Part shown: positions 1 through 35,493 of the stretch, piece by piece | Layout: the number at the start of each line of letters is the position of its first letter | Position numbering within the stretch: position 1 is the stretch's first letter | IMG/VR virus record: IMGVR_UViG_2529293246_000006 | Length of the DNA: 35,493 nt | Origin: a virus | Lineage: Duplodnaviria > Heunggongvirae > Uroviricota > Caudoviricetes | Reading direction: 5' to 3' (one strand) | The notes under the pieces: generated by a model | What the model saw: the letters and a program-made list of their open reading frames with translations, nothing else | What the model was told of the DNA's origin: nothing | Database searches by the model: none | Translations under genes and position numbers: made by a program

Positions 1-390
1 TTACTCCTTTTTCCCTGTATCGGCATCAGGTTCGCCATCAAACAGTTTGCCCTGCATCCGATCCAGTTCTTCTTTTCTGACCCGCTTCACCACGCTGTAA
101 ACCCACTGTAGTGAAACACCAAATTTGCGGGCCAGTTCGTGATGGTTGCGCCCGTCAAACTCCAGGAAAATTTCCCGGTCGCGCTGGCTGACCTTCCAGA
201 CCATGCCCATCGGAAAATAGACGTTTTGCCCACCCCAGACCTGCATCATGCGGTTCGCGACGGCCTGACCAATCTGGTCGGCAACTGCGGGTTCGATATC
301 AATAATCTCGCGGACAGTCTCAGAGGTATGCTGTGCCAGTTCCACCAACAGTTCCGGCCCTTTACTACGAAACTGATTCAGGTCGCTCAT
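1..390 (-). CDS. mor: Mor/C-family transcriptional activator (middle operon regulator-like), 129 aa
   Basis: ORF 1..420 trimmed to the internal ATG at 390 (MSDLNQF...), which gives the 129-aa size typical of Mor. That ATG overlaps the upstream gene's stop as ATGA. C-terminal HTH-like region; family assignment is from memory. Confidence 0.75.
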   Translation of the reverse strand: MSDLNQFRSKGPELLVELAQHTSETVREIIDIEPAVADQIGQAVANRMMQVWGGQNVYFPMGMVWKVSQRDREIFLEFDGRNHHELARKFGVSLQWVYSVVKRVRKEELDRMQGKLFDGEPDADTGKKE

Positions 391-815
391 TGCTTCACTC
401 CCGCAGCTCTGCGCTGCCACTTCTTCAGTTTCTCAATCACGCTACTTGCCTGCTCATTGCTGAGCCAGCGTAACGCGCTGATTCCGGTTTCCCGTTTAAC
501 CCACAGCGCCAGCGCCTGCTCTGAACTGTCACGGACGATGCCTGCGGCAGCCATTTCAAGCCATAGCGCACGGATTTTCTTTGACTGCGGATGGCTGTCG
601 AGCGGTAAGCCGGACTTGGCTTTCCCGGCAGGCTTAATGCGAAAGCCTTTCTTTTTCATTGATTCCAGCACGCGGTTTAGCTGTGGGGTATCCATCCCTT
701 TGGTTGAGGCTTTGCCGGTCAGCCCCTGTAGCATCTGGCGGTAGGTGTCCTCATCCATCTGGAGGTCGCTGCGGGCAATATGAATGAGTTGAATAAGACG
801 CTGCTTAGTCATCAT
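387..815 (-). CDS. gemA: GemA-like protein (Mu gp16 family)
   Basis: ORF 387..1004 trimmed to ATGATG at 815..810, preceded by an AGGAG Shine-Dalgarno. Protein starts MMTKQRLIQLIHIARSDL...; sits immediately upstream of mor as in Mu. Family assignment from memory. Confidence 0.6.
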   Translation of the reverse strand: MMTKQRLIQLIHIARSDLQMDEDTYRQMLQGLTGKASTKGMDTPQLNRVLESMKKKGFRIKPAGKAKSGLPLDSHPQSKKIRALWLEMAAAGIVRDSSEQALALWVKRETGISALRWLSNEQASSVIEKLKKWQRRAAGVKQ

Positions 816-1016
816 TGCCACTCCTTTTACCTGCGCCACCGATATAGTCGACATATAAAGGAAGCGCGACAGGCCAGCACAGGAACATAACGGCCCAACT
901 GATCCAGTGTCCGGTACCGCTGTAACGTGAGTAAAACCCTGAACGGCGGTGCAGTTCAGCAGTACACCACCCCACGAGACCATACCAGAACAAGGCACAT
1001 ACAATTGATTCAGCCA

Positions 1017-1706
1017 TCATAAGCCACTCCCCAGCTTCCGCTGTTCCTGCCCGCTGACAGGCTGATGTAGACGGACGTTTTCTCCCTCTCTGTAACCGAT
1101 GTGGCGGGACATGTCCGCGTCACGGGATTTACCGGCTTTGCGGCCAGAGGTTGTTCCTGAATCAGGGTATTTTTGTTCAAGCCAGAGGTTTGCCAGCTCC
1201 CGTTCTTCGCGGGACATAGCAAATAAATGAACCTCACTACGCACGGCCAGAACCCATCCTTCGGCAAATTTGTCACCACGGCTGGTCTTGGTCGTGTTTT
1301 TGATTCTTTTATTCTGCTGTCGAATATAGTTTTTACGGGCCATGATTAACTGTCTGGCCAGTACCTCCCATGTATATGAGGCCAGTTCAACCCGGTCTTT
1401 ATTACCGTAAAAGCCAACGCCGGGTTTAAAGCCGGAGTGAATAATAGACTTAACGCCAAATGCCACCTGGATAATATCCAGCAGACCCAGCATATAACGC
1501 GGCGGATTAACGCTACCTGCAGCCCAGTAGTTACTGACGCTTTCATCAATATCACTGAGTGCGAGGTCAGCCTGGGTGATGTTATAGGCCTGCATCAGTT
1601 TCTGGGCGCGTTGCAGTGCCAGTGCCGCTTCATGGGGGTTATCGGATTTAGCCAGCGCAAGTAGCTTTTTTAACTTCTCCAGCAGCTTTTCATTATTCTG
1701 CGGCAT
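1017..1706 (-). CDS. early protein with DUF2786-like N-terminus
   Basis: 229-aa ORF. N-terminal LLEKLKKLLALAKSDNPHEAALALQRAQKLMQAYNI matches the helical motif I associate with DUF2786 phage proteins. ATG at 1706. Confidence 0.55.
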   Translation of the reverse strand: MPQNNEKLLEKLKKLLALAKSDNPHEAALALQRAQKLMQAYNITQADLALSDIDESVSNYWAAGSVNPPRYMLGLLDIIQVAFGVKSIIHSGFKPGVGFYGNKDRVELASYTWEVLARQLIMARKNYIRQQNKRIKNTTKTSRGDKFAEGWVLAVRSEVHLFAMSREERELANLWLEQKYPDSGTTSGRKAGKSRDADMSRHIGYREGENVRLHQPVSGQEQRKLGSGL

Positions 1707-1989
1707 AAGTCACCCCCAGGCGTTCGGCAAGGCGTTCCAGCTTTTTCTGCTTATGAAAATCAATCATCAGGCCCATCCCGTTTAGGCGGAACTGTTCAAT
1801 TATGATTTCAACGTCAGCCAGTTCGCCTGCCAGATCAACTTCATTGCCCAGTCCGTTCATGTTGCGGGCAGCAGCAGCGGCCAGTTCGGCAGCTTCTTCC
1901 ATCAGCTTCAGAGCCTGAGCTTCTGGGCCGAAGGTTTTGAGGGCCAGATTGTAGATCGTCGAACGGTTATATAATTTCATGCCTTTCAT
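1693..1989 (-). CDS. small MazG-like all-alpha NTP pyrophosphohydrolase (putative)
   Basis: 98 aa. Contains LKLMEEAAELAAAA...DLAGELADVEIIIEQ, resembling the EExxE...ExxD metal-binding helices of MazG/HisE-type pyrophosphatases. Assignment by motif only. Confidence 0.4.
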   Translation of the reverse strand: MKGMKLYNRSTIYNLALKTFGPEAQALKLMEEAAELAAAAARNMNGLGNEVDLAGELADVEIIIEQFRLNGMGLMIDFHKQKKLERLAERLGVTYAAE

Positions 1990-2004
1990 CTTATCTTCCC
2001 CAAA

Positions 2005-2277
2005 TCAATGGCGTGATACGCTGATAACTTTCACGTGGCCGTCCTCAGTAATTTCCAGCTCGTACAGCGGCGGCATTTTTCTCAGGTGGTCACTGGTGGC
2101 GTGAAGAACGTAAATGGCCTGATCTAGGCCATTTGTTGCTACGATGGCGTGTGAAGCCATGCTGATTAATTTGATTAATACCTGCCGGATATGGTTGGGA
2201 TTTTCACAACCACATTCACTGATATATTCCGCGACAATTTCACGGGTCCGTTTTTCGGCTTCTTTTGCAGTAATCAT
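2005..2277 (-). CDS. hypothetical early protein (90 aa)
   Basis: ORF in the early operon; ATG at 2277 overlaps the upstream stop (ATGA). Confidence 0.5.
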   Translation of the reverse strand: MITAKEAEKRTREIVAEYISECGCENPNHIRQVLIKLISMASHAIVATNGLDQAIYVLHATSDHLRKMPPLYELEITEDGHVKVISVSRH

Positions 2278-2462
2278 TTCTTTGCCTCACAAGGGATGAA
2301 TTCCATGGCCGGGACTTCGGTGTAGTAATGCTGGCTACAGTGTGGGCATACCAGCGTGATGAGGACGGCTGGTACGCGGTACTTACCGGAGGAAATGACG
2401 CTGGCGTCGCTGAACTTCAGGGTGGTGATACCTTTCTGGCAGTTGATACATTTGATGGACAT
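2274..2462 (-). CDS. small zinc-ribbon protein (62 aa)
   Basis: Two Cys pairs (CINC ... CPHC) about 35 residues apart, typical of a zinc ribbon. Sits in the early accessory region. Confidence 0.5.
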   Translation of the reverse strand: MSIKCINCQKGITTLKFSDASVISSGKYRVPAVLITLVCPHCSQHYYTEVPAMEFIPCEAKK

Positions 2463-2540
2463 GATTTATTCCTTAATGCTGTTTTCGGCGTGCAGAAGCC
2501 CACGGCACTGACGCCGAAATAAAAAGAAATTGAATTAAAA

Positions 2541-3152
2541 TTAAATGGCAGCGATATCTAACGGAATATTAATTAGCTTCCCGTGTTTATCTTTCTCCCG
2601 GAAATTAATATAGGTTTTGGACATTGCCACCTGCAGTGATTCCGATATGGCCTCCATTGCCCGGTTCCAGCGCTCGTCCTGAATCTTGACGCGGCGCAGG
2701 GAAAGAATACGTCCGGTATTAAGCTGGCCCTCTTTGTCCACCTGAAAAGCATCGCTGATGATGGCCCGCAGGTTGGCGTTCGCGCCTTCCGACCACTCGG
2801 TGACGCACTCGTCTATCAGGTCTTTGGCAATCTGCAGCTCTGGCCCGAAGGTCAGGGTTTCCTGCACGCGGATGGTGATCTGCTGAGCACCGTCGAAGCT
2901 GCTGAAGGTCACGTTGCCTTTGGCACCGCCACGCGTTCTGCCGTACTTCTCGGCCACAAGGTCAAGCCAGGCATAGCACTCGTCAAAGGCACGACGCTTG
3001 AAGTCACTGAGTTCATCGCGTTTAACCTTCGCGGCGACAACCTGTTCTTTAACGAAAGAGTCCATCGCAAGGTCATAGTCAGACACCTGGTCAACCGGCA
3101 CCAGACGCCCCTTGCGGTCTTTCATGTAGTTTTCTTTATTTACTTCGCTCAT
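2541..3152 (-). CDS. conserved early protein of Mu-like phages (possibly DUF3164 family)
   Basis: 203-aa ORF in the semi-essential early region between the B-like ATPase and gemA. Family guess from memory; no similarity to Mu Gam noted. Confidence 0.45.
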   Translation of the reverse strand: MSEVNKENYMKDRKGRLVPVDQVSDYDLAMDSFVKEQVVAAKVKRDELSDFKRRAFDECYAWLDLVAEKYGRTRGGAKGNVTFSSFDGAQQITIRVQETLTFGPELQIAKDLIDECVTEWSEGANANLRAIISDAFQVDKEGQLNTGRILSLRRVKIQDERWNRAMEAISESLQVAMSKTYINFREKDKHGKLINIPLDIAAI

Positions 3153-3169
3153 CTCTGTTCACCTTATGG

Positions 3170-3439
3170 TTAATGTAACGACTCTGACCAGGTAATACGG
3201 CAGCCATGCAACTCAAAGACACCCTGACGGAAGCGCCCTGAGCCGTCATGGCCAACATGGGTATAACTCGCTTTGCCCTGCTCCAGCAGGCGGGCACAGT
3301 GCCCGTTGCGGGCGATACGGATAACCGGCTTACTGCCAGCAATCATGACGCTCTGCACGGTAGTGTTCATGGCGTTGAGCGCCATAATGGCGGACTGCAC
3401 CTTGTTCATCTGCTGGTTGATATCGGCGATGGATTTCAT
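3170..3439 (-). CDS. hypothetical small early protein (89 aa) at the kil position
   Basis: ORF immediately downstream of the B-like ATPase (stop at 3442), the position Kil occupies in Mu. No recognisable motif. Confidence 0.45.
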   Translation of the reverse strand: MKSIADINQQMNKVQSAIMALNAMNTTVQSVMIAGSKPVIRIARNGHCARLLEQGKASYTHVGHDGSGRFRQGVFELHGCRITWSESLH

Positions 3440-3441
3440 GC

Positions 3442-4608
3442 TTAAACTCCTTTGACGACGTCGGCGTTGACCTGCGGGACCCCGATTTCAGCAGCCAGAT
3501 TCATGGCGGCTATCACCAGGTTACTGACGGCCAGCGGATACAGCAGGCTGACCATGCTTTTACGGCTACTACCCAGATTGCTCAGACGGGCGCGGATGGC
3601 TTCCACTGCGCTGGCGTCCATGATGTCGGCCAGCTGCTTACCGGCACGTTGCAGTTTGAACGTCAGAAACTCTTCGAGGCTGTTGTCCAGCGGCAGCAAT
3701 TCAACCAACTCGCAGCGCTGGACGACCTCACGGACTTCCATGTTGCGTTCGGACAGTTTGTCTGCCAGTTCAGGCTGGCCAATCAGCACGATGGACAGCA
3801 GTTTTTTGAAGCCGGACTCCAGTTCGAAGAAGCGTTTAAGGTGCTTCAGCGTCGGAATGGGAAGGCTGTGGGCCTCCTCAATCACCAGAACGTGGCTGAA
3901 ACCCGCCTGACTGCTGTCCTTCAGGACTCGGTGCAACTGGCGGAAGCGGGCGTCCTGGCTGCGTTTGATACTCTCCAGCGGCGCGATGGTGCTGATGATG
4001 GCCTCGGCGATAGCTGCCGCCTTCAGGGTTTTGCCCTTCACGTCGTTGTCTTCCATGGCGATGATGTATGGCTCGATTACAATCACCGGCGCGTTCTCGC
4101 GGTTGACGCGTTCAATCAGGTCGCGGCGCAGCGTGGATTTACCCGCACCGGACTCGCCGATAACCGCCAGAAAGCCACCATGGCGGGCGGTCTGGAACAG
4201 CGCCTCACGCACGTAGCGGATATCCGGCGTGGTGAACACATCGTCCGCGCCCTGCATGGCTTCATCGGCGAACGGATCACGGAAAAGGCCAAACGCTTTT
4301 TTGGTTGCTGGAAATAACACCTGCTTTTTGAGTAACATGTTCTCTTCCTCACTGAGGTTGGTTTTATCGGTAGTACCCGCTGTACGGGGCGTGACAGCGC
4401 CCTGTGCAGCATCAAAACTTTTCACTGTATCAATCCCCTTACTTTCCAGATACAACGCCAGACGCTGGCGTACCTCTTCGGGGCTGGTGCGTGGCCACTC
4501 GTTATGGTTCACAATCTGGGCCAGCGTGGCCTCGGAAACGGCGACGGCTCTTGCCACCACCGCCTGCGGGATGCGGGCCTCTTTCAGTTGTTGCTTCAGT
4601 ACCAGCAT
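3442..4608 (-). CDS. transposition ATPase (MuB-like AAA+ target DNA activator)
   Basis: 388 aa. Walker A GESGAGKST and Walker B VLVIEEAH. Directly downstream of the transposase. Strong GAGGAGG Shine-Dalgarno before the ATG at 4608. Confidence 0.85.
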   Translation of the reverse strand: MLVLKQQLKEARIPQAVVARAVAVSEATLAQIVNHNEWPRTSPEEVRQRLALYLESKGIDTVKSFDAAQGAVTPRTAGTTDKTNLSEEENMLLKKQVLFPATKKAFGLFRDPFADEAMQGADDVFTTPDIRYVREALFQTARHGGFLAVIGESGAGKSTLRRDLIERVNRENAPVIVIEPYIIAMEDNDVKGKTLKAAAIAEAIISTIAPLESIKRSQDARFRQLHRVLKDSSQAGFSHVLVIEEAHSLPIPTLKHLKRFFELESGFKKLLSIVLIGQPELADKLSERNMEVREVVQRCELVELLPLDNSLEEFLTFKLQRAGKQLADIMDASAVEAIRARLSNLGSSRKSMVSLLYPLAVSNLVIAAMNLAAEIGVPQVNADVVKGV

Positions 4609-4618
4609 GCCTTCCTCC

Positions 4619-6388
4619 TCAGTTACCGTTAACGATGCTGATAACGCTGTTGCGGGCCGGAGTGGTCAGGGTAACCATCACCTCATCCAGCGCGGCTTCA
4701 GGTACGCCATCCGGGTACTGCGCCGTTAACTGGCGGTAATGTTCCGGCGTCCAGATATGGCCGTTAGCGCCAAACTTCTCGCGCAGGGCTTTCGCCGCCT
4801 CCACATGGGTCAGCGGACGCTGCTCAATACGCGGCCCGCGCACGTCTGAAGCCTGACCGCGCTTCGGCATATAGGCCGGAAGCGTGGTGTCGTCGATATG
4901 TTTGTACGGGTCAAGTCGCCCGCCGAACGGCAGCGCCTTCGCCTTGCGTGCAGCAGCTGCATCGGTGGCGTTATCGGTGCCCGTAACCAGCTCTTCGATT
5001 TCTTTTGCCGCCGTCTGCGCCGGGGTCTCCGGCAGGGCTTTGTAGTTTTCGCCAAATACCGCCGCGTTTTCGGCAAAGCCGAACTCGTTCTTTCTGACCT
5101 CCTCGACCAGGAAGAACGTCTCGTGACCGTCCTCACCGGTCAGCACCACCTGCGCCACATCGCTGCGCCACGGGTTACGGGTAATCATCAGTTTTTCGCC
5201 GACCAGTACGCCCGGTACCGTCGAAACGTCAAACTCATTGCCCCGGAACGAGACGCGCAGTTTTGGTGTGACCTTACGGAGTTCCGGTGCGGCCACCGCC
5301 AGTTCGCGGCAAACCTCAACGGATGGCGCTTTTTTCAGCTGGTCAGCAGTAATCTTCAGCCAGATATCCGTGCGGGTTTTACCGTGGCGGCTGTGGACCG
5401 CCGTGGCGTTAAAGTGGCTGCGCCATTTCACCGCCAGTGCGTTCAGTTCGTCCAGGCTATGAACCGGCTGGAATTTGAGACCCGGCTCCAGTTTACGTTC
5501 GATAATGTCACGGGCCTTTTCCACCTGCCCGGTGGCGCGGGCGTTATGCGGCTTGTGCGCTATCAGATTGATGCCCAGCGAGCGGCACATGTTTTTCGTC
5601 ATGCCAGCGGTGTTCGCCGAACCGGGATCAAGGTAGAGTATTTTCGGCACGCCGTGCAGCACGTCCGCGCCGCCGCGCTCCTGCATGGCGTTGATAAGCA
5701 CAGAACAGAGGTTCTCACCAGATTCCGCACCCATCACGTACTCAACGTAAATCCAGCCGCTGGTATGGTCGGTAATCTCGTAACTCCACACGCGGTCACT
5801 GGCGATGCGGGCGATGTTGGCAGGCTTGTTCTTGTAGAACTTCGAGCTGTCCATCACCTGCAACCCTTTATGGCCGTTGCTCAGGTAGTAAAGCGTACAA
5901 AGTGAGGCATCAATCTCCCAGACGTGATTGGGATGCAGGCTGGCCATCTCGGACGACGGGGCCGGTGCGTCAAGCTGTTCCGGGTGCAGACCATAGTTCC
6001 GCAGGGCGCGGCTGATGGTATCCTCGGACAGCGGGAAAAACTCGCCTGTGGCCTCGTCCGTTCTGCCAGCAGTGATAAAGCCGTTTGACCGCAGGGTCTC
6101 CACCGCATCCGCGATGGAATACAGGCGCTTACCGTTCTTACGGGTGGCCTCGCGCAGCGTGGCAGATATCAGCGCGGCTTCGTCGCGGCTCAGGGCACTG
6201 CGCCCGGCATCGGCGCGTTTTTTACGTTTGTCAGTCACTGATACCTCCTTCAGCTTGCGCAGCAGGGTGGCGCGGGAAATGCCCAGTTCGGCGCAGGCGG
6301 CATCATATATCGCACCACGCTTACCATGCCCCGCGTCACGTGCCGCGCGGGCAACATAAACCAGTCGTTCAGTCAGGGCGGCACTCAT
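4619..6388 (-). CDS. DDE transposase (Mu/BcepMu-type, integrase-core fold)
   Basis: 589 aa. N-terminal HTH region, candidate catalytic Asp residues in HVWEIDAS and YLDPGSAN, followed by a conserved Glu region. Sits just upstream of the ATPase as in transposable phages. Confidence 0.85.
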   Translation of the reverse strand: MSAALTERLVYVARAARDAGHGKRGAIYDAACAELGISRATLLRKLKEVSVTDKRKKRADAGRSALSRDEAALISATLREATRKNGKRLYSIADAVETLRSNGFITAGRTDEATGEFFPLSEDTISRALRNYGLHPEQLDAPAPSSEMASLHPNHVWEIDASLCTLYYLSNGHKGLQVMDSSKFYKNKPANIARIASDRVWSYEITDHTSGWIYVEYVMGAESGENLCSVLINAMQERGGADVLHGVPKILYLDPGSANTAGMTKNMCRSLGINLIAHKPHNARATGQVEKARDIIERKLEPGLKFQPVHSLDELNALAVKWRSHFNATAVHSRHGKTRTDIWLKITADQLKKAPSVEVCRELAVAAPELRKVTPKLRVSFRGNEFDVSTVPGVLVGEKLMITRNPWRSDVAQVVLTGEDGHETFFLVEEVRKNEFGFAENAAVFGENYKALPETPAQTAAKEIEELVTGTDNATDAAAARKAKALPFGGRLDPYKHIDDTTLPAYMPKRGQASDVRGPRIEQRPLTHVEAAKALREKFGANGHIWTPEHYRQLTAQYPDGVPEAALDEVMVTLTTPARNSVISIVNGN

Positions 6389-6391
6389 GGG

Positions 6392-7300
6392 TTATGCCTC
6401 CTGCCCGTTAATCTCTGGCGTCGGGTCAGTCAGCCATGAAGGGGCGGCGTTGCCTGTCGGCTCGTCCGGCAGGTCAAATGTGGAGCGTAGGCTACGCGCG
6501 GTGCTTTCCAACTGGCAGACCAGACCGGCCATAAAGTCTCTGGGGGTATCAATCATATTTTCAGCACAGTATGCGCACAGGGTCTCAAAGGCGCTGGACA
6601 GTCGAACGGCGATGGCAGATTCCGCCTCAACCGCTAACGCTGTAACTTCCGCACGCAGCTTCTTCACCTCTTCGTCAGGCTTGGGCGGCTGGATACGGGA
6701 TTTCTTCTCCAGTTTTGTGGAGAGCGAGTCGATTTTTTCGTTTTTGTCGGCAAGCACGCGCTGTTGTGCTGCGTTGGTTTCGCGGGCTTCACGTAGGGCT
6801 TGACGCAATTCTCTACAGCTCATGCGGTCGACATCATCTAGTTTCAGACCCGCTACAGTGCCACCATCAGCCAGTTCAGCGAGAGATTCATCATCTTCAG
6901 TCATCAATTCAAAAAGTTTGGATTTACCCAAATGTGCCAACGTTGGCACATTTGATTTCAGTGCGGGGGATAAGTATTTAGTCGATGCTTGCATCATCCG
7001 CACAGAAGTTCGGTATGGTAAGCCCAACTCATTTTCAAGAATGTTAATAAATTCCCCGTGCGGCTCATTTTCTTTAAGAATTACAAGGCGCTTACCTGCT
7101 TCCAGCATCGCCTCAGCACTCTGTGCCATATAAAACCGTGTTTCGTGAACAATACGATCACGTTCATACGGCAGACCATCACCGAACTGCTGCATGATTT
7201 CGAGGCGATGTTCGGTCATGGCATTAAGACTAACGTTGAGGCCATCACTCAGCGGAGCATCTTCCATTAGTTCAACTGGTTGTGATTTTGTGCGTCCCAT
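6392..7300 (-). CDS. hypothetical early protein (302 aa, coiled-coil rich)
   Basis: ORF with an AAGGAG Shine-Dalgarno before the ATG at 7300. Central region is Glu/Lys/Ala-rich and looks coiled-coil. No family recognised. Confidence 0.5.
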   Translation of the reverse strand: MGRTKSQPVELMEDAPLSDGLNVSLNAMTEHRLEIMQQFGDGLPYERDRIVHETRFYMAQSAEAMLEAGKRLVILKENEPHGEFINILENELGLPYRTSVRMMQASTKYLSPALKSNVPTLAHLGKSKLFELMTEDDESLAELADGGTVAGLKLDDVDRMSCRELRQALREARETNAAQQRVLADKNEKIDSLSTKLEKKSRIQPPKPDEEVKKLRAEVTALAVEAESAIAVRLSSAFETLCAYCAENMIDTPRDFMAGLVCQLESTARSLRSTFDLPDEPTGNAAPSWLTDPTPEINGQEA

Positions 7301-7309
7301 TTCAACTCC

Positions 7310-7615
7310 TTAGCGACTACCAGCCATAACACGCTGGTTGATTTCATTAATACGATCCTGCGCCCGCGCCATTTCGGTACTGTGCGCCATGGCGATTTGT
7401 AAGAGCTGGACTCCAGGGGCAAAACGCCCGTTATCCAGTTTCAGGGCCAGTCCTTCTTCGATAAGGGTATTGAGCGCCCGATTGATATTCGCCGGGGACT
7501 CGCCCAGAGCTGACGCCAGCTCGCCGTTAGAAACACCGTTCAGAGCGTGACCGCGTAAAGCCTTAAGGACACGCAAAATACGGGTACCTGAGCTTGATGT
7601 ATTTGGTTTACTCAT
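7310..7615 (-). CDS. winged-HTH transcriptional regulator (IclR/MarR-like N-domain)
   Basis: 101 aa. RILRVLKALRGHALNGVSNGELASALGESPANINRALNTLIEEGL looks like an HTH. Its start overlaps the ner stop (ATGA). Confidence 0.5.
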   Translation of the reverse strand: MSKPNTSSSGTRILRVLKALRGHALNGVSNGELASALGESPANINRALNTLIEEGLALKLDNGRFAPGVQLLQIAMAHSTEMARAQDRINEINQRVMAGSR

Positions 7616-7836
7616 GACGCCTCCTTGAGGATGCCGGGGGTAACTTCTTTGCCTATTGCGACCGAAAGGTCTCGCAAAATCCGATAAGTCAAACGACCGC
7701 GTGGAAGTTCGCTTTTGCCTGCCCAGCGGCTGACAGCCTGGGTGACTGTTCGTGGCTCATAGCCCGCGTTAAGCGCGAACTGGCGCAAGCTACTGCCTCT
7801 TTCAACCAGCCGTGCCCGAACTTGTTGTTTGTTCAT
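7612..7836 (-). CDS. ner: Ner-like DNA-binding protein
   Basis: 74 aa from the ATG at 7836. ...LRQFALNAGYEPRTVTQAVSR... resembles the Ner/Nlp family. First gene of the minus-strand early operon, divergent from the repressor. Confidence 0.7.
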   Translation of the reverse strand: MNKQQVRARLVERGSSLRQFALNAGYEPRTVTQAVSRWAGKSELPRGRLTYRILRDLSVAIGKEVTPGILKEAS

Positions 7837-7924
7837 ATGCACCGTGTTCCTGTTGGGTTATGATGTACTCTATTGGGTCTATTGTACGCACCCGAACGGG
7901 TATGTCAAATTGAGATATGTTCAA
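7837..7924. promoter_or_regulatory. divergent ner/repressor intergenic control region (putative operators and promoters)
   Basis: 88-bp spacer between divergent start codons. Contains TGTTGGGTTA and TATTGGGTCT direct repeats and a CCCGAACGGG inverted repeat. Function inferred from position only. Confidence 0.4.
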
Positions 7925-31096: not shown

Positions 31097-32071
31097 ATGG
31101 CAAACCTACCTGAAACCCCGCAGTGGGAAGACGGCATCTACCAGATTGAGGTCTCCGACCCCGTACTGGGCGGGCCTGACGGAATTTCTAACCGTCAGGC
31201 TAAACAGCTGGCCAGCCGTACTTCATACCTGAAACAACAGGTTGAAAAAGGCGGTTCAGATCTCGCGAAACACATCGCAGCGGCCGACCCGCATACCCAG
31301 TACGCGACGAAGGCCAGCCCAACATTCACGGGTACGCCAACGGCCCCCACGCCTGCAGCTAATGACAATAGCAAAAAGCTGGTGACGACAGAATTTGTGG
31401 CGAGGGCGATTGCTGCGCTTGCAGGTACAGCCCCAGAAACACTGGATACGCTGAAAGAGCTGGCTGATGCCCTTGGCAACGATCCAAACTTTGCGACCAC
31501 AGTGCTGAACAAGCTGGCGGAGAAACTGGCCAAAGACCAGAACGGTGCGGATATTCCCGATAAGGCAGCCTTTCTTCAAAACCTTCGTTTGGGAGCAGGT
31601 GCTCCAGCTATCGGTATTCCGTTCTTCTGGCCTTCAGCTGCGATGCCTAATACCGTCATAGATGAATGGGCAGATATGGTGTTTCTGAAATTCAACGGTG
31701 CGACATTTTCGGCAACAACTTATCCGAAGCTAGCTAAGGTGATCCCCAGTCTGACGCTAACCGAGGCTCGGGGTGAGTTTCCGCGCATTTGGGATGATGG
31801 GCGTGGCGTGGATAACGGGCGTGCATTGTTGAGTATACAGGGTGATGCCATCAGAAATATCACCGGTAATGTCGGCGTTTATTCAGATGGTTTATTAACT
31901 TATGCTTCTGGTGTTTTTTCTCTTGGGTCTTCATCATCGAATAAAAATAACCCAATAGCAGGGAGCGGGGCAAATGCTTACGCCACTTTTGATGCTTCAA
32001 AAGTCGTACCAACAGCTTCTGAAAACCGTCCTCGTAACATCGCTTTTAACTTCCTTGTGAGAGCAAAGTAA
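31097..32071 (+). CDS. tail fibre protein (constant N-terminal part 31097-31583 plus invertible variable C-terminal part)
   Basis: 324 aa. The left inversion site (31571-31596) lies inside the gene. The C-terminal part is AT-rich compared with the N-terminal part. Confidence 0.75.
   Translation: MANLPETPQWEDGIYQIEVSDPVLGGPDGISNRQAKQLASRTSYLKQQVEKGGSDLAKHIAAADPHTQYATKASPTFTGTPTAPTPAANDNSKKLVTTEFVARAIAALAGTAPETLDTLKELADALGNDPNFATTVLNKLAEKLAKDQNGADIPDKAAFLQNLRLGAGAPAIGIPFFWPSAAMPNTVIDEWADMVFLKFNGATFSATTYPKLAKVIPSLTLTEARGEFPRIWDDGRGVDNGRALLSIQGDAIRNITGNVGVYSDGLLTYASGVFSLGSSSSNKNNPIAGSGANAYATFDASKVVPTASENRPRNIAFNFLVRAK
31571..31596. repeat. left inversion site (gix/hix-like), core TT at 31584-31585
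   Basis: TTTCTTCAAAACC-TT-CGTTTGGGAGC is an inverted copy of the site at 33431-33456 and resembles the Hin hixL site TTCTTGAAAACCAAGGTTTTTGATAA as I recall it. Confidence 0.7.
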
Positions 32072-32682
32072 TGAAACCTATTTTTAATGAAAATGGACTG
32101 GCAACTGAGGCGGGCGATATTCGCTGCTTTTACTATGACTCTTTTACTTATGAATATACGGGCTGGTCTGACGAACATATTAACGTTGGTGTAAGCATGC
32201 CGGGGAATTCGACCGATATTGATCCGGGTGATGAGGTGTCAGGCATGGTCGCTGTATTTAACTGTGATGCATGGAATCAACAGGAAGACCACCGCGGCGA
32301 AACCGTATTTTCTACCGCTGATAGTAGCCATGTAACCGTTGATTACATCGGTGAAATCAGAGACGGCTTCACAACAGCAGCTCCTGCCACACCTTACGAT
32401 AAGTGGGATGGGGAGAAGTGGATAACGGATAGTGAAGCGCAGCACACAGCCAACATCGCCGCTGCTGAAGTAGACAAACAGTCCAAAATTGACCAGGCCA
32501 ATGAATACATCAACAGTAAGCAGTGGCCCGGCAAAGCCGCTTTGGGCCGCCTAAGTGACGCGGAGAAAGAGCAATATAATTTGTGGCTGGATTATCTCGA
32601 TGCGCTGGAAGCTGTAGACACCTCCAGTGCTCCAGATATTAACTGGCCTACTCAGCCTGATAATCGGGAGCAGGCTGGGTAA
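32071..32682 (+). CDS. tail fibre assembly chaperone (Mu U / P2 G-like)
   Basis: 203 aa; ATGA overlap with the fibre gene. Lies inside the invertible segment and is AT-rich. Confidence 0.65.
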   Translation: MKPIFNENGLATEAGDIRCFYYDSFTYEYTGWSDEHINVGVSMPGNSTDIDPGDEVSGMVAVFNCDAWNQQEDHRGETVFSTADSSHVTVDYIGEIRDGFTTAAPATPYDKWDGEKWITDSEAQHTANIAAAEVDKQSKIDQANEYINSKQWPGKAALGRLSDAEKEQYNLWLDYLDALEAVDTSSAPDINWPTQPDNREQAG

Positions 32683-32839
32683 ATGCGGCGCCATCGTATA
32701 AATACCCCGACTCAACGTCATCAGGACAATTAACCCAAACCAACGAGGGGTGGAAACGCCCCTCCGGATCTACATCTACGGTTTCTTCAACGCGAAAGTT
32801 TTCTTTGCCTTCAATTTTTTTAATTCTTGCCCATGTCAT
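32648..32839 (-). CDS. small putative tail-fibre assembly protein for the alternative fibre (U'-like)
   Basis: 63 aa, convergent with and overlapping the 3' end of the plus-strand assembly gene; follows the alternative fibre cassette on the minus strand. Confidence 0.4.
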   Translation of the reverse strand: MTWARIKKIEGKENFRVEETVDVDPEGRFHPSLVWVNCPDDVESGYLYDGAAFTQPAPDYQAE

Positions 32840-32843
32840 TTAA

Positions 32844-33442
32844 TCACCACTCAATAATCACAATACCATTTTTACCGGAGCCGGATTTATTACTACTGTT
32901 AGCAGCAATCCCACCACCACCGCCCCCATAACCAGGCGCATCCAGACCCATCCCTGTAGATCCTCGGCCTCCGGGGCCGCCACCGTTGCCGCCGCAATTT
33001 GCCGAGTTGGCTGAACCGTCATCCCCCCAACCCAACCCCTGATTAACGTCTCCGCCAAAACCGGCTCCCGACGAACCACCGGATGTTGATGTGCCGCCAT
33101 ACCCATACTGACCACCAGTCGCGGAGAGATAAGAACCAAAAGAAGATGACCCACCGGATGCGCCATTACCTGTAGTTACGCCAGCACCAGCAGAGCCAAC
33201 GGTTACCGTAACGCTTGAAACGTCTGTGAGATCGAGAAGCAATTTCGAATATCCGCCACCGCCGCCACCGCCCCCGCGCTTTGTTGTATCGGTAGTCGAC
33301 CCGCCAGACGCTCCACCACCAATTACTGTCACCTGGCATTTTCGCCCTTGTTGGAGTGCCTCAGGAACGTTCCAGTTAGATACTCCAGGGGTGTTGAAAA
33401 CAACTATGTTTTGCAGGCCAAAGGCCGATGCTCCTAAACCAA
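32844..33442 (-). CDS. alternative tail-fibre C-terminal variable domain (Sv'-like), promoterless cassette, Gly-rich
   Basis: Minus-strand ORF reads ...FSKNLGLGASAFGLQNIV... across the right inversion site, in frame with the constant part (FLQNL) after inversion. Contains long Gly runs (GGGGGGGG, GGGGGG). Confidence 0.55.
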
Positions 33443-33456
33443 GGTTTTTGGAAAAG
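33431..33456. repeat. right inversion site (gix/hix-like), core AA at 33441-33442
   Basis: CTCCTAAACC-AA-GGTTTTTGGAAAAG is the inverted partner of the site at 31571-31596; 61 bp upstream of the invertase start. Confidence 0.7.
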
Positions 33457-33516
33457 CAGTTACACATAGCGAAATCTGCAAAAATCCTCCTACCGCGACA
33501 TAGAGGAGGAAAATTG

Positions 33517-34098
33517 ATGGCCGTCATTGGTTATATCCGCGTATCAACAATCGACCAGAACAGCGATTTACAGCGTAATGCGCTCACAAGCGCAAACTGT
33601 GACCGCATTTTTGAAGACCGTATGAGCGGAAAAGTTGCCAGCCGCCCCGGTCTGAAACGCGCTTTAAAGTGCGTTAATAGCGGAGACACCCTGGTCGTGT
33701 GGAAACTGGACAGGCTGGGGCGCAGCGTTAAGAACCTGATCGCACTGATATCAGAATTACATGAACGCGGTGCCCACTTCCGCTCTTTAACAGACAGTAT
33801 TGATACCAGCACTGCCATGGGGCGCTTCTTTTTCCATGTGATGTCAGCACTGGCGGAGATGGAACGTGAGCTGATCGTCGAACGAACACTGGCCGGGTTG
33901 GCAGCAGCCAGAGCACAGGGACGCATAGGTGGAAGGCCCAATGCATTAAAACCGCATGAGCGGGAACAGATTGGGAGACTATTGGCCAGGGGACATACTC
34001 GCCAGCAACTGGCCATAATCTACGGAGTGGGATTATCGACGCTCTATCGGTATTTTCCGGTAGATAGTCAGAGGAAGGATGAAGCGGTAGGATTGTAA
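33517..34098 (+). CDS. gin: site-specific serine DNA invertase (Gin/Hin/Pin/Cin family)
   Basis: 193 aa. MAVIGYIRVSTIDQNSDLQRNAL...GDTLVVWKLDRLGRS...SLTDSIDTS..GRFFFHVMSALAEMERELIVERT closely matches the Gin/Hin sequences I recall, including the catalytic Ser in VSTIDQ. GAGGAGGA Shine-Dalgarno. Confidence 0.9.
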   Translation: MAVIGYIRVSTIDQNSDLQRNALTSANCDRIFEDRMSGKVASRPGLKRALKCVNSGDTLVVWKLDRLGRSVKNLIALISELHERGAHFRSLTDSIDTSTAMGRFFFHVMSALAEMERELIVERTLAGLAAARAQGRIGGRPNALKPHEREQIGRLLARGHTRQQLAIIYGVGLSTLYRYFPVDSQRKDEAVGL

Positions 34099-34132: not shown

Positions 34133-34176
34133 CATTTATCTCACGGAAATGGGCGCATTTATCGCGCGGCGCATCA
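34133..34176. repeat. prophage right terminus with two transposase-binding-like repeats; phage DNA ends ...CA at 34176
   Basis: CATTTATC at 34133-34140 and 34156-34163. Read inward from the end, the terminus is TGATGCGCCGCGCGATAAATGCG..., resembling the Mu R end TGAAGCGGCGCACGAAAAACGCG...CGATAAATGCG as I recall it. Confidence 0.65.
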
Positions 34177-35493
34177 TTTCATGGTTACGCCGGTGATTAA
34201 ACCAATCACCGCCACTACCATCAGGTAATAGGCAGGCATCATCAGATTCTGCGAGCTTTCGACCAGCCAGGCCGCCAGTGTTGGCGTCAGACCGGCAACC
34301 AGCACCGAAATATTAAATGCCGCCGCCAGCGCGCTGTAACGGATATGCGTCGGGAACATCGCTGGCAAGGTAGAAGCCATAACGCCCGTAAAGCAGTTAA
34401 GGATCACCGCCAGCATCAGTAACCCGGCAAAAATCAGGCCGATGACGTTACTGTTAATCAGAATAAACGCCGGGATCGCCAACACAAACAGGGCAACACT
34501 ACCAAGTAGCACAAACGGACGACGGCCAAAACGGTCACTCAGCAAGCCCATCACCGGCTGGACAAACAGCATACCGATCATAATGGCGATAATAATCAGC
34601 ACCCCGTGGTCTTCGGAGTAATGCAGGTTATGCGACAAATAACTCGGCATATAGGTCAGCAACATGTAGTAAGTCACGTTGGTGGCAATTACCAGACCAA
34701 TACATGTCAACAGGCTGCGCCAGTGTTTGGTGGCAATCTCTTTAAACGAGACTTTCGGGCCATCCTGCAAACCTTCGCGGTCGCCCTGTTCCAGTTTATC
34801 GACATGCTGCTGGAACGCCGGAGTTTCTTCCAGCGCATGGCGCAGGTAAAGCCCGATAATCCCTAACGGCAGAGCAATAAAGAACGGAATACGCCAGCCC
34901 CAGTCGAGGAAGTTCGCTTCGCCGACAATGGTCGAAATTAACACCACTACGCCAGCACCCAGCACAAACCCGGCAATAGAACCAAAGTCCAGCCAGCTGC
35001 CCATAAAGCCACGTTTACGGTCAGGGGAGTATTCCGCAACAAATATCGACGCCCCGGTATATTCACCGCCGACCGAGAAACCTTGTGCCATCTTACAGAT
35101 CAACAGCAGAATCGGTGCCCAAATACCAATCGTGTCGTAGGACGGTATTAAGCCAATACAGAACGTACTGATCGACATAATCACAATAGTGATAGCGAGG
35201 ATCTTCTGGCGACCATATTTATCGCCCAACATACCAAAGAAGAGTCCGCCAAGCGGTCGAATCAGAAAGGGAACGGAGAACGTGGCAAGTGCAGCAACCA
35301 TCTGCACGCTGGGGTCAGCCCCCGGGAAAAAAACTTTACCTAATGCGTAAGCAACAAAACCATAAACACCAAAATCAAACCATTCCATTGCATTACCCAG
35401 TGATGCTGCGGTAATGGCTTTACGCAGTTTACCGTCATCAATAATGGTGACATCACGAAGGGTAATCGGTTTTACTTTTTTCCTTTTCAGCAT
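34174..35493 (-). CDS. proP: proline/glycine-betaine MFS transporter ProP, 3'-truncated by the prophage insertion (439 of ~500 codons)
   Basis: Protein starts MLKRKKVKPITLRDVTIIDDGKLRKAITAASLGNAMEWFDFGVYGFVAYALGKVFFPG..., matching E. coli ProP from memory. The frame ends ...GVTMK and then a TGA formed by the phage terminal TGA at 34174-34176. The C-terminal domain is missing. Confidence 0.8.
   Translation of the reverse strand: MLKRKKVKPITLRDVTIIDDGKLRKAITAASLGNAMEWFDFGVYGFVAYALGKVFFPGADPSVQMVAALATFSVPFLIRPLGGLFFGMLGDKYGRQKILAITIVIMSISTFCIGLIPSYDTIGIWAPILLLICKMAQGFSVGGEYTGASIFVAEYSPDRKRGFMGSWLDFGSIAGFVLGAGVVVLISTIVGEANFLDWGWRIPFFIALPLGIIGLYLRHALEETPAFQQHVDKLEQGDREGLQDGPKVSFKEIATKHWRSLLTCIGLVIATNVTYYMLLTYMPSYLSHNLHYSEDHGVLIIIAIMIGMLFVQPVMGLLSDRFGRRPFVLLGSVALFVLAIPAFILINSNVIGLIFAGLLMLAVILNCFTGVMASTLPAMFPTHIRYSALAAAFNISVLVAGLTPTLAAWLVESSQNLMMPAYYLMVVAVIGLITGVTMK

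Follow-up and report, generated by a model that had tools for sequence, protein, structure and literature searches.

A short open reading frame (ORF) in the early region of a transposable prophage raises two questions: does it encode an enzyme of the MazG kind, and what would such an enzyme do for the phage? The ORF lies at positions 1693-1989 of a 35,493-nt stretch of DNA, IMG/VR virus record IMGVR_UViG_2529293246_000006 (Caudoviricetes), which we analysed at its full length and call the window. An earlier examination of the letters of this DNA (hereafter the sequence-only reading) had proposed, from motif resemblance, that the 98-amino-acid (aa) product is a MazG-like nucleotide pyrophosphohydrolase. 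Profile and structure searches support this call of a MazG/HisE-type all-alpha nucleoside triphosphate (NTP) pyrophosphatase, and at the level of sequence comparison membership of the MazG-like family is supported. We consider it likely that the protein is a stand-alone module of the MazG/HisE clan that conditions the pool of ribo- and deoxyribonucleoside triphosphates, (d)NTPs, for phage DNA synthesis.

The proposed 98-aa ORF exists at the coordinates given, with the correction that it is encoded on the minus strand: it opens with an ATG at 1989-1987, closes with a TAA at 1695-1693 and translates to MKGMKLYNRSTIYNLALKTFGPEAQALKLMEEAAELAAAAARNMNGLGNEVDLAGELADVEIIIEQFRLNGMGLMIDFHKQKKLERLAERLGVTYAAE. 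Both acidic peptides that had drawn attention to it are present, LMEEAAELAAAA at residues 29-40 and LAGELADVEIIIEQ at residues 53-66. The plus-strand reading of 1693-1989 is interrupted by in-frame stop codons, and a gene on that strand was therefore rejected. Relative to the orthologue of Klebsiella phage KP12, the gene shows 15 synonymous and 2 non-synonymous differences, which corresponds to a ratio of non-synonymous to synonymous rates (dN/dS) of 0.035; the ratio is about 0.15 against Escherichia phage PhiKM and against a Serratia prophage, and ranges overall from 0.035 to 0.18. Such strong purifying selection indicates that the 98-aa ORF is a real gene. Window positions 1000-3200 (2.2 kb) match the E. 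coli AW1.7 chromosome at 100% identity; there, the Prokaryotic Genome Annotation Pipeline (PGAP) calls the coding sequence (CDS) WP_001569383.1, a 'hypothetical protein'; the KP12 and PhiKM records label the orthologue in the same way.

We next asked to which family the protein belongs. Searched alone, it matched Pfam PRA-PH (PF01503) with E=0.0013 and 19.5 bits, below the gathering threshold of 21.3 bits, and Pfam MazG (PF03819) with E=0.088 and 13.5 bits, below the threshold of 22 bits; both near-threshold alignments were in the correct register. PHROG 2245, annotated as 'nucleoside triphosphate pyrophosphohydrolase', was matched at E=6.6e-30 (105.5 bits), with residues 4-96 aligned to positions 116-210 of the 218 in the profile, and weaker matches were obtained to further NTP pyrophosphatase or MazG-like PHROGs (4856, 1992 and 715). 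When 65 diverse relatives were scanned singly, 12 matched Pfam MazG (E<=0.01; best 4.2e-8), 4 matched PRA-PH and 2 matched the MazG-like family PF12643; the 12 MazG-matching relatives were recovered by the family profile at E values of about 1e-20 to 1e-27. Moreover, two phage-family alignments, A1 and A2, were compared by hhalign with an independent alignment, A3, of 26 genuine PF03819 proteins related to the solved Bacillus MazG 5ie9. This gave P=2.7e-4 for A1 and P=1e-4 for A2, at a probability of 42-58%, and the conserved F-x-P, EExxE and ExxD segments were in register. The profile searches thus bear out the proposed family, with the single query itself remaining sub-threshold.

The proposal had started from two acidic motifs in the arrangement EExxE...ExxD, and these were found as described. 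The pattern EE..E-x(12-28)-E..D fits residues 31-59, where E31, E32 and E35 are followed, after a 20-residue gap, by E56 and D59. It was found in 0.34% of 200,000 composition-matched shuffles, and this is its sole occurrence among the 248 stop-to-stop segments of at least 60 aa in the window; the motif exceeds chance expectation. Conservation was assessed in 37 close homologs and in 65 distant relatives, the latter mostly 30-50% identical. The five acidic residues are each conserved in 90% or more of the sequences in either set, and D59 is invariant among the 65 distant relatives. G21, Q25, Q66, K83 and R86 show the same level of conservation, K83 being invariant. The first motif aligns with EEMGE of the Bacillus enzyme 5ie9 and the second with ELGD of genuine MazG. 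The A3 alignment also contains an invariant K95...R99 pair at a distance from ExxD similar to that of K83 and R86, which are likely to be the phosphate- or triphosphate-binding residues.

An AlphaFold2 model computed with the family alignment (predicted local distance difference test, pLDDT, 93; predicted template modelling score, pTM, 0.79) was analysed with DSSP, which assigned two long helices, residues 9-44 and 50-90, with a five-residue loop between them. Each predicted helix carries one acidic motif, in agreement with the paired acidic helices of the sequence-only reading. Judging from the residue spacing, an antiparallel hairpin with its turn at residues 45-49 would set E35 against D59 and put E32 and E56 one helical turn away. 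Foldseek searches against the PDB gave E values of 0.25 or worse; against the viral database BFVD, the top matches were 'nucleoside triphosphate pyrophosphohydrolases' of uncultured phages, with E down to 3e-5, a probability of 1.0 and template modelling (TM) scores of 0.7-0.8. The all-helical fold of the predicted model can be superimposed on solved members of the superfamily. The fold evidence is consistent across libraries, yet for a small helical protein it is only moderately strong.

How large is this family, and where in it does the protein stand? A word-indexed search returned 75 homologs, most of them in Enterobacterales prophages; a few already bear a functional name, either 'NTP pyrophosphatase (non-canonical NTP hydrolase)' (Joint Genome Institute, JGI) or 'nucleoside triphosphate pyrophosphohydrolase family protein' (NCBI). 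An exhaustive profile search reached 13,946 cluster representatives (clustering at 50% identity) at E<=1e-3, and 4,392 at E<=1e-10, the former number indicating that the PHROG 2245-type family is very large. Among isolated phages, tblastn with the window protein found four records only, even at E<=1, all unannotated or 'hypothetical'; the same search with a central family member (P0107) found ten, of which two RefSeq Clostridium phage records are named NTP pyrophosphohydrolase. The direct family is that of PHROG 2245 and of the BFVD entries A0A8S5UYQ2 and A0A8S5TW21, which share the acidic motifs and the K...R pair and superimpose with the TM scores given above at 25-33% identity. The PHROG 2245 archetype is a two-domain protein of ~210 aa (homolog P0095 spans profile positions 10-207), and by its alignment the window protein is the bare C-terminal catalytic module, profile positions 116-210. 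The solved small MazG proteins (Sulfolobus SSO3215, 1vmg; integron iMazG, 2q5z and 2q73; Bacillus, 5ie9; YpjD, 2gta) are only 14-27% identical to it, and in Bacillus MazG the loop between the motif helices is longer. What the window adds is a new member, so far unannotated, of a phage enzyme family that is known and very populous; it is not a new type of system.

Several relatives carry additional segments. P0073 and P0075 (~40% identical) have an N-terminal Lar-like zinc ribbon (PF14354, 22.8 bits, below the 28.6-bit cut-off). Zinc-ribbon proteins also recur beside the module: a 62-aa CxxC...CxxC ORF lies at 2274-2462 (minus strand), two genes upstream of the window gene, the zinc-ribbon ORF directly abuts the MazG-like gene in KP12, and P0018 and P0024 are fused calls of both genes. 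P0022, P0025 and P0026 are 169-aa variants with a C-terminal insertion of ~70 aa (KKLPRRELLEDWCGAVP...), which had no convincing Pfam or PHROG match (weak HTH_29 only, 16.6 bits against 28.1). In P0022 the LGVTYAAE tail is repeated after the insertion, as if by the in-frame insertion of a small module. The 94-aa metagenomic sequence P0067 is identical to the window gene through EEAAELA and continues as a typical HisE; most likely it is a chimeric assembly joined at the shared motif. As a chimeric contig, this sole homolog with a precomputed PRA-PH domain was excluded.

The gene belongs to a BcepMu-type (Bcepmuvirus-like) transposable prophage whose early operon is transcribed toward the left end of the window (Table 1). 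The window starts exactly at the stop codon of Mor and continues beyond the right end of the prophage into host DNA (~34145-35493), where a 3' fragment of adiA is followed by the beginning of adiY; according to PGAP, adiA of E. coli AW1.7 is interrupted by a prophage of ~34 kb. Over its first 6.4 kb, the window shares 99.7% identity with Escherichia phage Phi06_2974 B, and PhiKM, whose orthologue is ~71% identical, is classified in Bcepmuvirus. The operon runs from a small ORF through genes for a helix-turn-helix protein, DUF3102, a DDE transposase (4619-6388), a MuB-like AAA+ protein (3442-4608), an 89-aa ORF and DUF3164 to the 62-aa zinc-ribbon ORF, a 90-aa ORF, the MazG-like gene, DUF2786/DUF7168, a 71-aa ORF, GemA and Mor. 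The MazG-like gene thus stands between the MuB-like gene and GemA/Mor. The near-consensus sigma-70 promoter-like site of the central divergent control region, upstream of the first genes of the operon, is, by its sequence, the probable early promoter; in the first 9 kb, the total of such sites is no higher than in shuffled sequence. No terminator-like site was found on the minus strand within the early operon. Since the genes form a co-directional string from the promoter-like site (7908-7881) to GemA/Mor with no intervening terminator-like site, the placement in an early operon by the sequence-only reading was correct. The plus strand carries the genes for lysis, head and tail (PGAP). Besides the Dam methylase gene, the MazG-like gene is the prophage's sole nucleotide-metabolism gene. 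Neither an Rfam scan nor a tRNA scan of the window gave a match. At the right end (~32050-34064), two opposed tail-fibre assembly genes, a truncated lectin-domain gene and a 'recombinase family protein' (PGAP) look like a Gin/Cin-type invertible host-range segment.

Table 1. Coordinates of the MazG-like gene, its predicted functional motifs and the surrounding early operon in the window.
Feature	Position	Strand	Basis
MazG-like 98-aa CDS, predicted stand-alone all-alpha NTP pyrophosphohydrolase	1693..1989	minus	ORF and homology
First acidic motif EExxE, codons E31-E32-A-A-E35 (GAA GAA GCT GCC GAA), in helix 9-44	1885..1899	minus	
Second acidic motif ExxD, codons E56-L-A-D59 (GAA CTG GCT GAC), in helix 50-90	1813..1824	minus	
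Basic pair, codons K83-L-E-R86, C-terminal part of helix 2	1732..1743	minus	
Shine-Dalgarno-like GGGGAAG, 5 nt before the ATG	1995..2001	minus	sequence reading
14-nt overlap between the end of the MazG-like gene and the ATG of the downstream DUF2786/DUF7168 gene (1017-1706)	1693..1706	minus	
Early operon of the BcepMu-type prophage	1..7880	minus	
Promoter-like site TTGACA-16-TACAAT, 11/12 consensus matches, divergent control region	7881..7908	minus	consensus match only

The overlap with the downstream gene, a member of PHROG 421 of unknown function, suggests translational coupling, and relatives show how far this arrangement is kept. The gene order in a Serratia prophage (orthologue ~61-66% identical) is Gam, a small ORF, the MazG-like gene, DUF2786/DUF7168, GemA and Mor, and the 14-nt overlap between the MazG-like and DUF2786/DUF7168 genes is identical (loci L005 and L006). 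KP12 lacks the 90-aa gene upstream and has another ORF, of 128 aa, after the MazG-like gene, again overlapping by 14 nt; in PhiKM, an ORF of 71 aa intervenes downstream. The comparison of KP12, PhiKM and Serratia indicates that the MazG-like gene is retained while its neighbours change. Relatives of ~40% identity are found in the replication modules of non-Mu siphoviruses, near Dam and DnaB and upstream of HicAB and terminase. Given these siphovirus relatives and the other downstream genes in KP12 and PhiKM, an obligatory partnership with the DUF2786/DUF7168 protein was rejected. Contig L002, which carries the distant relative P0072, has an Apyc1-like metallo-beta-lactamase gene (1-686) in this early region, at a distance of ~5 kb upstream; a HicAB pair follows just downstream. 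A search of PADLOC-DB 2.0 with the MazG-like protein and six neighbours gave no match at E<=0.01, and a prophage-encoded defence module was rejected on this ground.

How would such a protein work? The analysis establishes the gene itself, its conserved motif, the family, the fold and the place in the operon; how and on what the enzyme acts, through which metal ligands, in which oligomeric state and to what biological end, we infer by homology. The protein would fold as a hairpin of two long helices, in which E31, E32 and E35 of helix 1 would face E56 and D59 of helix 2 and bind Mg2+, and the conserved basic residues K83, R86 and R90 would hold the triphosphate. The alpha-beta phosphoanhydride bond of a (d)NTP would then be hydrolysed, leaving a monophosphate and pyrophosphate. 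By analogy with other small MazG proteins, the active form is probably a dimer or a tetramer. The gene would be transcribed with the early operon, with probable translational coupling to its neighbours, so that the enzyme would be made as replicative transposition begins. Most likely, it would remove non-canonical or unwanted (d)NTPs and so condition the nucleotide pool for this mode of replication. We favour such a role because (d)NTPs are the substrates of those tested family members that we could verify, namely cyanophage MazG, which prefers dGTP and dCTP (PMC6850273).

Several points weigh against a pool-conditioning pyrophosphatase. The single query falls short of the curated Pfam and NCBIfam cut-offs. 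In HMMER searches of PDB sequences, the family profiles gave no significant match to any solved MazG: the best real match was the 5ie9 MazG, at E=0.17 for A1 and 0.073 for A2, and with A2 a designed coiled coil and a STAS protein outscored it. A phmmer search of the same sequences with the protein itself matched solely a designed repeat protein, a low-complexity artefact. The sequence link to solved MazG structures is thus weak, and support comes from profile-profile and transitive evidence. In the literature, we found no assayed member of the PHROG 2245-type family. Finally, the sequence gives no indication of substrate, and pool conditioning would be a prior taken from other MazG enzymes.

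If the protein is a MazG-like enzyme, could its target be an alarmone and not the (d)NTP pool? A precedent exists in Atd1, the MazG-like protein of Pectobacterium phage PcCB7V, which hydrolyses ppGpp with a Km of about 50 µM, does not act on ribonucleoside triphosphates or cyclic di-GMP (c-di-GMP), and protected cells from TIR-STING and retron-TIR (bioRxiv 10.1101/2022.06.09.495361). Like the window protein, Atd1 is phage-encoded, stand-alone, in the size range of ~90-120 aa, and a MazG-superfamily protein with twin acidic motifs that is encoded among accessory early genes. Its gene, however, lies beside a nucleotidyltransferase gene in a large virulent myovirus, whereas the window gene lies in a transposable prophage. 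An Atd1-like enzyme would hydrolyse (p)ppGpp early in lytic growth and block abortive infection and the toxin activation that depends on the stringent response, a counter-defence that would suit a Mu-type early operon, in which accessory genes such as Gam are typically host-directed. We nevertheless regard it as unlikely for the window protein. Scanning all ORFs of the PcCB7V genome (MW367417; L012) for MazG-superfamily genes yielded an 86-aa 'phosphoribosyl-ATP pyrophosphatase' (QQG33500.1; 2104-2364, minus strand), two genes from the nucleotidyltransferase, and a 120-aa 'hydrolase' (132.5 kb; 32483-32845 of L012, minus strand), which adjoins the DNA ligase gene and matches the genuine MazG profile at E=5.5e-5. 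The 86-aa protein is probably Atd1, an identity deduced from its position near the nucleotidyltransferase and not stated in the preprint. Neither is detectably related to the window family: QQG33500.1 gave a misaligned BLASTP match at E=0.12 and an hhalign P of 0.16, the 120-aa protein scored E=0.65-0.92 against the family profiles, and both candidates had E>=0.65 or no score. Orthology to Atd1 was therefore rejected, and its function is not transferable on that basis. Moreover, the Atd1 result comes from a single preprint, and the MazG of cyanophage S-PM2, a phage-encoded MazG-type enzyme long suspected of alarmone activity (compared here by description), neither bound nor hydrolysed (p)ppGpp when purified (PMC6850273). 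It is also conceivable, if doubtful, that the widespread PHROG 2245 lineage serves counter-defence and has an origin separate from that of Atd1. Hydrolysis of (p)ppGpp or of a non-canonical nucleotide signal would then halt abortive infection while the phage transposes replicatively, and the enzyme, whose gene is retained in the otherwise mosaic BcepMu-type early operon, might work with the adjoining or fused zinc-ribbon or DUF2786/DUF7168 proteins.

The other explanations depart further from a pool-conditioning pyrophosphatase. The sequence-only reading had also suggested that signalling nucleotides of immune pathways might be depleted, and an enzyme consuming such a nucleotide or its precursor (CBASS, Pycsar, Thoeris or a non-canonical dNTP signal) would disarm nucleotide-based defence. 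This idea draws on that suggestion and on the general chemistry of the superfamily only, to which the Apyc1-like gene of contig L002 adds in showing that such modules collect counter-defence genes. It appears very improbable to us: Atd1 left c-di-GMP uncleaved, we know of no MazG-type enzyme that cleaves cyclic nucleotides, and the MazG-like gene had no PADLOC match and is not linked to any defence or anti-defence marker of the window. Staphylococcal phage dimeric dUTPases moonlight as de-repressors, and by a comparable route a small protein that is little more than a two-helix hairpin might use the MazG scaffold as a non-catalytic, protein-binding regulator or inhibitor. The conserved 14-nt overlap with the downstream gene and the frequent fusion of the family to unrelated N- or C-terminal modules would agree with this, but retention of the five acidic ligands, K83 and R86 across relatives of 30-50% identity is what is expected of an active enzyme and hard to reconcile with a pure scaffold; we consider such a non-catalytic role quite improbable. 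(A dimeric dUTPase as such was rejected, with no Pfam match even at E<=10 in a scan that was the only test made for it.) Last, the query's own best Pfam and NCBIfam matches are PRA-PH/HisE models, as would be expected of a phage-borne phosphoribosyl-ATP pyrophosphatase supporting histidine biosynthesis. The score of 15.8 bits is nevertheless far from the 42.7-bit cut-off of the HisE equivalog domain (NCBIfam TIGR03188), MazG matches outnumber those to PRA-PH among the 65 relatives (12 against 4), and, in contrast to known HisE (PF01503; 1yvw, 6j22, 7bgm), the window gene lies in a phage early operon and not in a his operon, in a prophage without other his genes. A HisE function was rejected on score and context, and we give it hardly any chance.

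The main value of the finding is better annotation: what RefSeq and GenBank carry as a 'hypothetical protein' in E. coli prophages, KP12 and PhiKM can be labelled a MazG-like NTP pyrophosphohydrolase. That the gene is kept while its neighbours are swapped implies a selected function in the early lytic growth of transposable phages. The protein is small and easily expressed; identifying its substrate would inform ~14,000 related clusters, and it would help to settle the dispute over the substrates of phage MazG enzymes, dNTPs or alarmones.

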